DNA of 64,000 bases from Planctomycetaceae bacterium (GCA_021300535.1 JAJTED010000019.1:6367-70366); one strand, 5' to 3'; positions 37,802 through 39,532 are shown, numbered from the stretch's first letter. Program-made: numbers and translations. The notes: generated by a model not told the origin, from the sequence alone.

Positions 37802-39532
37802 ATGGGGATCGTCTTGCGGCCCTACGTCACCAGGCCGATGCCAGACGGGGCGAGGATCGTCACCCGCACCGTGATCGAGAAGGGCAAGCGGATCCGGCGG
37901 CCGTTCGCAGTCTGGACCGATGCCGACGGGAACACCCACGAAGCTCGTGCGACTGGGCCAAAGGCCAAGCGGGCCGGGATCGTCGAGCGGTGCCGCACCT
38001 ACTGGGCGCAGTACCTCGACGCCGACGGCCGGAAGCGGCGAGTATCGACTGGATGCCGGGACCGAACCGCGGCCCGCGCCGTGCTGGCCGACCTGGAGCG
38101 GCGCGCGGAGAAGGTCCGCAGCGGGATCGTGACGGCGGCGGAGGCAAACGTCGGGGATCATGCCGACGCCCCGATCCTCGACCACGTCGAGGCCTACGTC
38201 GAGGCGCTCGCGGGGAGCCGTGGCAAGGGGGCTCACCGCACCGTCGCCCCGCGGCACGTCGCTGGTGTGCGGCACGCCCTGTACCTCGTCGTTGAGGCCT
38301 GCGGATGGCATCGGCTCCGCGACCTGGATCGCGGCGCCGTCGAGCGGTGGGCCACGCGGCTGCTCGACGGGCCGGAGCCCCCGGCTCCGCGGACTGTGAA
38401 CGCGAAGCTCGCGGCACTGTGCGCGTGGGGGAACTGGCTCGTCGTCGCCGGCCGGCTCGTCGCCAACCCATTCGGCCGACTGCGGAAACTCGATGAAGCG
38501 GATGACGTCCGCCGCCAGCGGCGGGCACTGACCACCGACGAGTTGCGGCGGCTGCTCACGGTGGCACGCCTGCGGCCCGTGGCGGAGTTTGGCAGGCCGA
38601 CGATCCGTGTGGTCGATGCAGGCCGCCCCCGGGCCTCACGGGCGACGTGGAAGCGTGCTCCCCTCACGATCGACACGATCGAGGCCGCCGCCGCCGCGGG
38701 CCGGGACCGCGTGCGGCCCGATGTCGCCGCGCGGCTCGACGCTGCGGGCCGTGAGCGGGCACTGGTCTACGCCGTGCTCGTGACGACCGGACTGCGGCGC
38801 GGCGAACTGGCCGCGCTGACCGTGGCCGACGTGCTCCTCGACAACGACCCACCGGTGATCGTGCTGCCGGGGGCCGACGCGAAGAACGGCCAGCGGGCGA
38901 CGCTGCCGCTGCGGGCCGACGTGGCCGCGGAGTTGCGGGCCTGGATCGAGGATCGCACCGCGGCGGCCTGCGGGCGACGAGTCGGGATCGCAGGCACCAC
39001 GGCACCGCCGACGTCCATGCCGCTGTTCAACGTGCCCGTGGCCATGGTCAAGATCCTCGATCGTGACCTGGTCGCGGCCGGCATCCCCAAGCGGGATGAC
39101 CGGGGCCGCACCGTAGACGTCCATGCCCTACGCCACACCTTCGCGTCGCACCTGGTCGCCGCCGGCGTGGCCCCCCGGACGGCACAAGCGGCCCTGCGGC
39201 ACTCGTCGATCACGTTGACCATGCAGGCCTACACCGACCCGCGGCTCCTCGACGTGGCTGGAGCGCTGGACGCCCTGCCGGCTCTCCCGACGGCCGGCCC
39301 GGCCCCGGCGGAGGCCCGGGCGACTGGCACCACGGGCGCGAAAAATGTTGCACCCAATGTTGCACCCAATTCTGCCGGAAGGGGTCGGAAACGGTCGGTT
39401 TCTGACGGTTGCGACAGAATTGACGACGACCACCAGACGACGCGATCGGCCCTAAAAACAAGGGCTTTTCCGGCTGAAACGCAAGTACTCCCGACAGGGA
39501 TCGAACCTGTAACCTTCAGCTCCGGAGGCTGA
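37802..39532 (+). CDS. int: tyrosine-type site-specific integrase
   Basis: TTGLRRGELAAL (Arg I), HALRHTFASHL (HxxR) and LRHSSITLTMQAYTD (His/Tyr nucleophile box). An SD-like aagggaga lies before the ATG. The last 47 nt lie inside the att core/tRNA, and the stop TGA (39530-39532) straddles the core boundary. Confidence 0.85.
   Translation: MGIVLRPYVTRPMPDGARIVTRTVIEKGKRIRRPFAVWTDADGNTHEARATGPKAKRAGIVERCRTYWAQYLDADGRKRRVSTGCRDRTAARAVLADLERRAEKVRSGIVTAAEANVGDHADAPILDHVEAYVEALAGSRGKGAHRTVAPRHVAGVRHALYLVVEACGWHRLRDLDRGAVERWATRLLDGPEPPAPRTVNAKLAALCAWGNWLVVAGRLVANPFGRLRKLDEADDVRRQRRALTTDELRRLLTVARLRPVAEFGRPTIRVVDAGRPRASRATWKRAPLTIDTIEAAAAAGRDRVRPDVAARLDAAGRERALVYAVLVTTGLRRGELAALTVADVLLDNDPPVIVLPGADAKNGQRATLPLRADVAAELRAWIEDRTAAACGRRVGIAGTTAPPTSMPLFNVPVAMVKILDRDLVAAGIPKRDDRGRTVDVHALRHTFASHLVAAGVAPRTAQAALRHSSITLTMQAYTDPRLLDVAGALDALPALPTAGPAPAEARATGTTGAKNVAPNVAPNSAGRGRKRSVSDGCDRIDDDHQTTRSALKTRAFPAETQVLPTGIEPVTFSSGG
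39347..39367 (+). promoter_or_regulatory. candidate integrase arm-type sites (2x GTTGCACCC, 12-bp phasing), right arm
   Basis: GTTGCACCC occurs at 39347-39355 and 39359-39367 (aatgttgcaccc x2), about 120 bp inside attR. Orientation and spacing match the left-arm pair. Confidence 0.5.

Follow-up and report, generated by a model that had tools for sequence, protein, structure and literature searches.

The 64,000-nt window analysed here, a stretch of the genome of a Planctomycetaceae bacterium (GCA_021300535.1 JAJTED010000019.1:6367-70366), carries a 6.6-kb element whose tyrosine integrase gene (int) runs into one of the attachment (att) sites of the element. The element is bounded by the two copies of a direct repeat, 32887-32932 and 39486-39531, which match exactly over 46 nt and at 98% over 50 nt (repeat family D3). 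Its genes all lie on the plus strand and encode two HTH_17/Xis-like proteins, a DnaB-like helicase, a replication-initiator-like protein, a Terminase_4 small terminase (TerS) and the integrase. This is the gene set of a phage satellite, and between 32933 and 39485 no structural (capsid or tail) genes were found. Judged by its genes alone, the element resembles the phage-inducible chromosomal islands (PICIs): it is small, carries an integrase, Xis-like, replication and small terminase genes, and lacks capsid and tail genes. The element and its relatives would be phage satellites in Planctomycetota.

ARAGORN places a tRNA-Arg(CCG) gene on the minus strand at the right end of the element. The 46-nt repeat is the 3' part of this gene and reaches 4 nt into the 5' half of its anticodon stem. 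In another genome of the same genus (G007) the left-flank gene and tRNA-Arg lie ~50 nt apart and are free of any insert. This empty site shows that the 6.6-kb segment is an insertion at tRNA-Arg. The attachment sites of the integrated element are:

32887 to 32932, no strand assigned: attL core, a displaced copy of the 3' part of tRNA-Arg(CCG), identified as the exact 46-nt repeat of 39486-39531 and by the empty site of G007.
39486 to 39531, no strand assigned: attR core inside the int open reading frame (ORF), read as 'LPTGIEPVTFSSGG', identified by the repeat and the ORF translation.
39485 to 39559, minus strand: intact tRNA-Arg(CCG) regenerated by the element (the attB target), identified by ARAGORN.

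The integrated form of int and the features that lie within it are:

37802 to 39532, plus strand: short (integrated-state) tyrosine integrase ORF of 576 amino acids (aa), identified by PF00589, phrog_1 and invariant catalytic residues.
39278 to 39529, plus strand: integrase tail of ~84 aa encoded by the P arm and core, with no codon bias and predicted to be disordered.
39347 to 39367, plus strand: P arm-type sites, two copies of GTTGCACCC with 12-bp phasing, read as 'NVAPNVAPN' (repeat family D15).
39530 to 39532, plus strand: int stop codon TGA, whose third base, A39532, is the first chromosomal base outside the core and comes from the 5' half of the tRNA anticodon stem.

Translation from ATG 37802 agrees with the 'MGTVFKP' N-terminus of the homologues. 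The product matches PF00589 at aa 319-480 (E 2.7e-16; 60.2 bits, above the curated cut-off of 27.1) and the integrases of phrog_1 (E 1e-37), and its catalytic residues H441, R444, R466, H467 and Y477 are invariant in 24 aligned sequences. The nucleophile Y477 is encoded at 39230-39232, 85 codons upstream of the core, and the ~100 codons beyond the catalytic domain read through the two GTTGCACCC arm-type sites and the entire core. The truncated 576-aa form therefore keeps a complete catalytic domain. The base that follows the core is A at attR (39532), in contrast to C after the attL copy (32933), and since the stop falls at the core edge the integrated form gains zero new residues in the window. 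A preliminary description of this locus had claimed that the int ORF starting at 37802 crosses the att core and that its TGA is formed at the boundary between core and chromosome; the coordinates and the quoted peptide all proved correct. Codon periodicity in int is lost after ~39320, and no coding signal is detected from there to 39532. A peptide of the form (R/K)ATGTDD stands ~15-25 residues after the catalytic domain, ahead of the P arm sites ('ATGTTG' at 39308-39325 in the window, 'RATGTDD' in relatives), and is retained even between integrases that are only 42% identical.

We joined position 39531 to 32933 in silico, as in the excised attP form. The junction reads ggc tgc ggg cag ggt gtg... 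and adds an in-frame extension of 80 aa that passes a second GTTGCACCC pair and ends in LVERLAAGTDVATANDATPNDATA, giving a long integrase of 656 aa versus 576 aa in the integrated state. The frame is that of the ORF 32943-33173, just as the same description had foreseen for an excised form about 80 aa longer, and the alternative junction phases close after 12 and 4 codons. The severed part consists of:

32933 to 33173, plus strand: severed 3' end of int, 80 codons plus TGA at 33171-33173, the in-frame continuation of int and contiguous with it only in the excised attP form.
32957 to 32966, plus strand: candidate site for an accessory factor in the P' arm, the DNA motif GAAAACAAGG, kept as DNA and read in two frames in relatives (GKT versus ENK).
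32992 to 33012, plus strand: P' arm-type sites, two copies of GTTGCACCC with 12-bp phasing, read as 'CCTPRCT' (repeat family D15).
33024 to 33122, plus strand: C-terminal helix-LP-helix module (RLDVLARAVALVAAMPGLTDDERVALVERLAAG), identified by codon periodicity and alignment with 22 relatives.

The preliminary description had named the lack of a coding signal in 32943-33173 as a refutation; such a signal is present, in the distal part. It is strong at 33020-33170 in the extension frame (GC at codon positions 1/2/3 of ~0.88/0.50/0.95), where third-position variation and a ratio of nonsynonymous to synonymous polymorphism (pN/pS) of ~0.49 agree with it, and absent at 32933-33010. By itself the GC pattern at 33020-33170 could come from either the plus frame or its antisense. 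Two minus-strand ORFs, 32817-33221 and 32849-33409, were considered as the source of the periodicity and are ruled out by the conservation of the module as a plus-strand protein. A further ORF in a different frame, 32990-33502, has an unconvincing Arg/Pro-rich translation. Between the severed tail and the first HTH_17 gene lie two direct copies of CCACGGTGCTC, 11 nt apart (33297-33325), a possible operator.

We examined whether the extension is a general property of the integrase family. Relatives number more than 1,400 (as clusters) in the protein collection and are planctomycete integrases where named; 149 distinct loci were drawn from GTDB genomes, IMG/VR and JGI metagenomes. Integrase lengths are bimodal. 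Forms of ~576-586 aa end in or just past antisense tRNA sequence (FSSGG*, SSLGS*, LMKPVL*, PSLSS*, PRITI* and others), whereas forms of ~625-711 aa run on via 'RCTxRCT' to 'DELARVVALVAxLPGTDDERAxLLARAVELLG', the counterpart of 33024-33122 in the window. Paired '(V/F/L)A(P/L)x(V/F/L)A(P/L)' peptides, the equivalents of the P arm sites, occur throughout the family. At 108 of the 110 loci that have a minus-strand tRNA gene there, representing 20 tRNA species, the int frame is open from the catalytic domain into the tRNA; of the two remaining frames, one is open in 15 and one in 3 of 108 loci.

Reconstruction of attP was carried out for all 20 loci with both att copies (cores of 25-90 nt, elements of 6.6-11.7 kb). 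Each of the 20 gives an in-frame extension of int, of 65-163 aa. Depending on the lineage, the codon phase at the junction is 0, 1 or 2, and the 20 reconstructions involve at least 12 tRNA targets, indicating that the agreement in frame was not inherited from the frame of a single ancestor. The 'xCTxxCT' arm-site pair is present in nearly all reconstructed extensions and the module can be aligned in 19 of 20, the ending of L068 being the one not aligned.

Several side observations concern the wider family. The integrase family has changed among at least 20 tRNA targets, and across lineages the antisense tRNA core is read in all three frames (G-I/L/F-E-P, x-S-N-P / L-N-R, T-R-T), the tolerated frames being the stop-free ones. 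In P0187, an integrated relative, a host gene continues in frame through attL into the severed int tail, creating a 185-aa chimeric ORF with the module at its end. A 140-kb Phycisphaerae contig encodes a 710-aa integrase (L014:9998-12127) with P arm sites, a P'-like 'NACTNG' and the hairpin module ('LAAVVTAWPTLPEPVRAGVVATV'), with no tRNA-core peptide between them; this enzyme may be core-deleted and permanently 'long'. A second integrase lies 8 kb downstream of it. At ten loci (L063, L082, L085, L086, L088, L147, L169, L170, L180 and L183) related integrases end 12-21 aa past the catalytic domain and have no read-through tail.

Excised forms also occur naturally. In contigs with long integrases the element genes are circularly permuted. 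L188 (6792 bp) and L189 (7119 bp) each encode a long integrase and carry terminal repeats, an exact one of 55 nt and one of 114 nt, respectively, indicating that both are circular assemblies. L190, L112, L115, L120 and L160 are additional attP-state pieces. All of these natural attP-state contigs encode long integrases, of 625-711 aa, and none of the attP-state relatives examined has a broken frame. The closest natural long form of the window integrase is P0020, on the circular contig L188. For the window element itself no attP contig was found in IMG/VR or in its own assembly, where the sole match is attL.

An open frame might serve the passage of ribosomes or transcription into the genes behind the junction, through anti-polarity or translational coupling, in which case the module would be incidental or a separately acting peptide. 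The next gene begins 2 nt after the stop of the long int in L188, where it is TerS, and 20 nt after it in L190; the element genes are all co-oriented, and the linker that precedes the module shows no protein-level signal, all of which fits such a role. However, the gap is 140 nt in L189, TerS coupling is not general, as TerS of the window lies upstream of int, and the module is conserved as a protein at the end of the ORF in distant lineages whose downstream genes differ. We consider this explanation improbable.

The spacing of sites within attP provides further evidence on the frame. The P2-to-P'1 distance, between the second arm-type site of the P arm and the first of the P' arm, is 229, 232, 238, 241 or 250 nt, and every value equals 1 mod 3. 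The window, L188 and L189 have the motif GAAAACAA, located between the two sites, 35 nt from P'1; in L190, L112, L115 and L120 this spacing is 34 nt, with a compensating difference on the other side of the motif. As a result it is read G-AAA-ACA in some elements and GAA-AAC-AA in others, and the frame is restored. Compensating indels of this sort are what selection on the reading frame itself would be expected to produce. The motif, as GAAAACAA(G/A)G, is kept regardless of frame, 34-35 nt ahead of P'1, and is a candidate site for a bending protein or Xis.

Taken from the window alone, the frame match could be a one-in-three coincidence in stop-poor, GC-rich DNA. On comparative grounds chance is ruled out, because all 20 attP sites are in frame with all three junction phases represented, and because the int frame is open at 108 of 110 loci and the alternative frames at just 15 and 3 of 108. 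A spurious GC-rich ORF is likewise rejected by the frame statistics together with the compensating indels. The continuity of frame that the preliminary description predicted for homologous elements is thus borne out by the 20 reconstructions, by the natural long forms, two of them circular, and by the compensating indels.

We also examined selection on the module. Variable columns fall at codon positions 1, 2 and 3 in the proportions 14, 16 and 32 of 35, and pN/pS is ~0.49 in two of the groups and 0.73 in the third, which is small. Of the extension, only the final ~33 residues resemble a protein module under selection. The part that joins them to the catalytic domain is predicted to be disordered and would be attP DNA whose frame is simply held open.

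The distal ORF (32943-33173 or shorter) might instead be an independent small gene whose frame matches int by coincidence. Gene callers do give many 40-170-aa proteins that end in the module, and the window has in-frame GTG/ATG codons at 32943 and further in. Yet no start codon in frame between core and module is conserved: L006 and L080 lack one ahead of the module, and GTG 32943 of the window is GTC in L188, the closest relative. A profile search with the module returned 649 representative proteins. The short ones inspected are integrase C-terminal fragments, or ORFs whose N-termini are mutually unrelated and often include tRNA-core peptide or catalytic sequence. To go by their sequences, they are remnants of split int genes, with no gene family of their own. 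The lack of a conserved start and these unrelated N-termini, along with the 20 in-frame attP sites in all junction phases and the compensating indels, lead us to reject an independent gene, an explanation to which we give hardly any credence.

The fold of a long form was predicted with an AlphaFold2 monomer model built from a 50-sequence alignment; it is a model of the homologue P0015 (648 aa) rather than of the window protein. The model displays a beta-rich N-terminal domain (1-72), followed by helical and catalytic domains to ~495. Residues 502-610, encoded by attP, have a predicted local distance difference test score (pLDDT) of ~30, and two terminal helices, 612-627 and 632-647, score 69-85. 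The body of the model matches Brujita Int best (E 7e-10) and also lambda Int (E 2e-7). The module matches no Pfam family, and against sequence profiles of the PDB it gives only a weak match to IS629 OrfA (E 0.025), which we do not trust.

Together the comparisons show that int is a split ORF, that this architecture is conserved, and that both the reading frame and the module are under selection. We think it very likely that the whole attP lies inside the 3' part of int, that integration truncates the integrase and that excision restores its C-terminal module. In this mechanism P arm sites, the 46-bp tRNA core and P' arm sites would all be contained in int. The free circle would encode a 656-aa protein with N-terminal arm-binding, core-binding and catalytic domains, a disordered attP-encoded linker (~110 aa in P0015, ~130 aa going by the coordinates of the window) and a 33-aa C-terminal helical hairpin. 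When the element integrates into tRNA-Arg(CCG), the ORF would be cut by strand exchange within the core, leaving a 576-aa product with a TGA derived from the tRNA anticodon stem. The last 80 codons, including the module, would be left 6.6 kb away at attL without a start of their own until excision rejoined them. The long integrase would thus be made only when the element is free and the short one only when it is integrated. By analogy with IntP and IntX of the myxophage Mx8, the most likely role of the tethered module is to tune assembly or directionality. The long form would favour the integrative attP x attB reaction, and excision would be carried out by the short form together with the two Xis-like HTH_17 proteins.

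In the fuselloviruses, integration splits the integrase gene (PMC4383910), and a similar 'suicide' logic, as in SSV1, could apply here: only the long form would be active, the prophage form would be dead, and excision would need another recombinase or a helper phage. Purifying selection on the module is compatible with its being required for activity. Several findings speak against a dead prophage form. The short form retains the entire catalytic domain, with invariant residues up to Y477 and ~100 residues more; circular excised relatives are readily assembled from metagenomes; related integrases without any extension exist; and the truncated form of Mx8 remains active (PMC6070905). A dead prophage form is therefore unlikely in our view. 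SSV1-type elements of archaea do share with the window an attP within the integrase gene and a partitioned ORF (PMC4383910). Whereas the SSV-type split divides the enzyme itself, the split in the window removes only a tethered C-terminal module and leaves the catalytic domain whole.

Some points weigh against truncation and restoration of the module as we propose them. That both isoforms are made and differ in activity is something we infer from the Mx8 precedent. As the module matches no known family, any role assigned to it is guesswork. A pN/pS of 0.49 suggests merely moderate constraint. Many of the 20 reconstructions are mutually related, and the independent lineages number about 12, not 20. 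Finally, the integrases with tails of 12-21 aa indicate that the extension is not essential to such enzymes and is dispensable in some lineages.

The closest known design is that of Mx8, in which intP becomes intX upon integration into tRNA-Asp. Like the window element, Mx8 has attP within the int ORF, an ORF that stays in frame past the core, and a catalytic domain that is kept when the protein is truncated. In Mx8 Int (AF396866, 5208-6809) the catalytic Tyr lies in 'VDAYTT' and is followed by ~60 aa, by 'STGLEPV' and by ~110 further residues. By analogy with the cores of the window family, we read 'STGLEPV' as a tRNA-antisense peptide. Review literature on Mx8 places attP inside int and reports that int acquires a new 3' end on integration while its product is not inactivated, and that the isoforms differ in recombination activity or specificity (PMC6070905); Mx8 and SSV integrases are both described as extending across attP (Islander paper, PMC4383910). 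The analogy to Mx8 drawn in the preliminary description is therefore apt, as the same linear order is found in Mx8 Int and attP lies inside int (PMC6070905, PMC4383910). Against the window integrase family, Mx8 Int gives a best BLASTP E of 0.1, and tblastn of 50,697 phage records returned no match, indicating a kinship by design rather than demonstrable descent. Mx8 is a 49.5-kb phage, in contrast to the 6.6-kb satellite-like element of the window. Unlike that of Mx8, the extension of the window family ends in a hairpin module, is found phylum-wide and occurs with at least 20 tRNA targets. By its design, the window system would belong to the Mx8-type attP-in-int kind, conserved across the phylum, with a C-terminal hairpin module added.

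Two other phage systems offer partial parallels. As in lambda-type integrases, the window protein is predicted to have arm-binding, core-binding and catalytic domains, and paired arm-type sites flank the core, which here lies in a tRNA gene. The lambda int gene ends ~14 residues after the catalytic Tyr, beside attP and not across it. In the integration-dependent immunity of the mycobacteriophages BPs and Brujita, attP lies in the repressor gene and truncation removes a degradation tag. There too attP is inside a gene whose C-terminus changes with integration and reports the integrated or free state. In BPs and Brujita, however, the split gene is the repressor, whereas in the window it is the integrase, and the piece removed is a folded hairpin with no obvious tag.

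It is possible, though we hold it to be doubtful, that the hairpin on its attP-encoded linker acts as a built-in topological state sensor, a directionality device of an undescribed kind. Present only in the circle, the module would toggle the recombinase between two assemblies, one competent for integration and the other capable of excision only; it could do so by linking protomers, for instance, or by bringing in a factor from the host or a helper phage.

Mx8 was long seen as an oddity, and our search of the literature found no paper on an attP-in-int arrangement in Planctomycetota; the same design is the rule for a large family in this phylum. Here ~270 bp of DNA are doubly used, as a recombination site and as a reading frame, and the family offers a conserved 33-aa module whose function is directly testable. 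Its matched long and short integrases form a natural series for studying C-terminal control of tyrosine recombinase directionality, and the subfamily with tails of 12-21 aa provides a natural contrast, useful for dating the origin of the extension. For annotation, 'hypothetical' ORFs of 40-170 aa at the attL ends of such islands are severed integrase tails, and the split-int design means that integrase length tells free from integrated forms in metagenomes. If the module does act as a state sensor, a very large family of planctomycete satellites would have its directionality control written in the DNA joint and not in a separate regulator.

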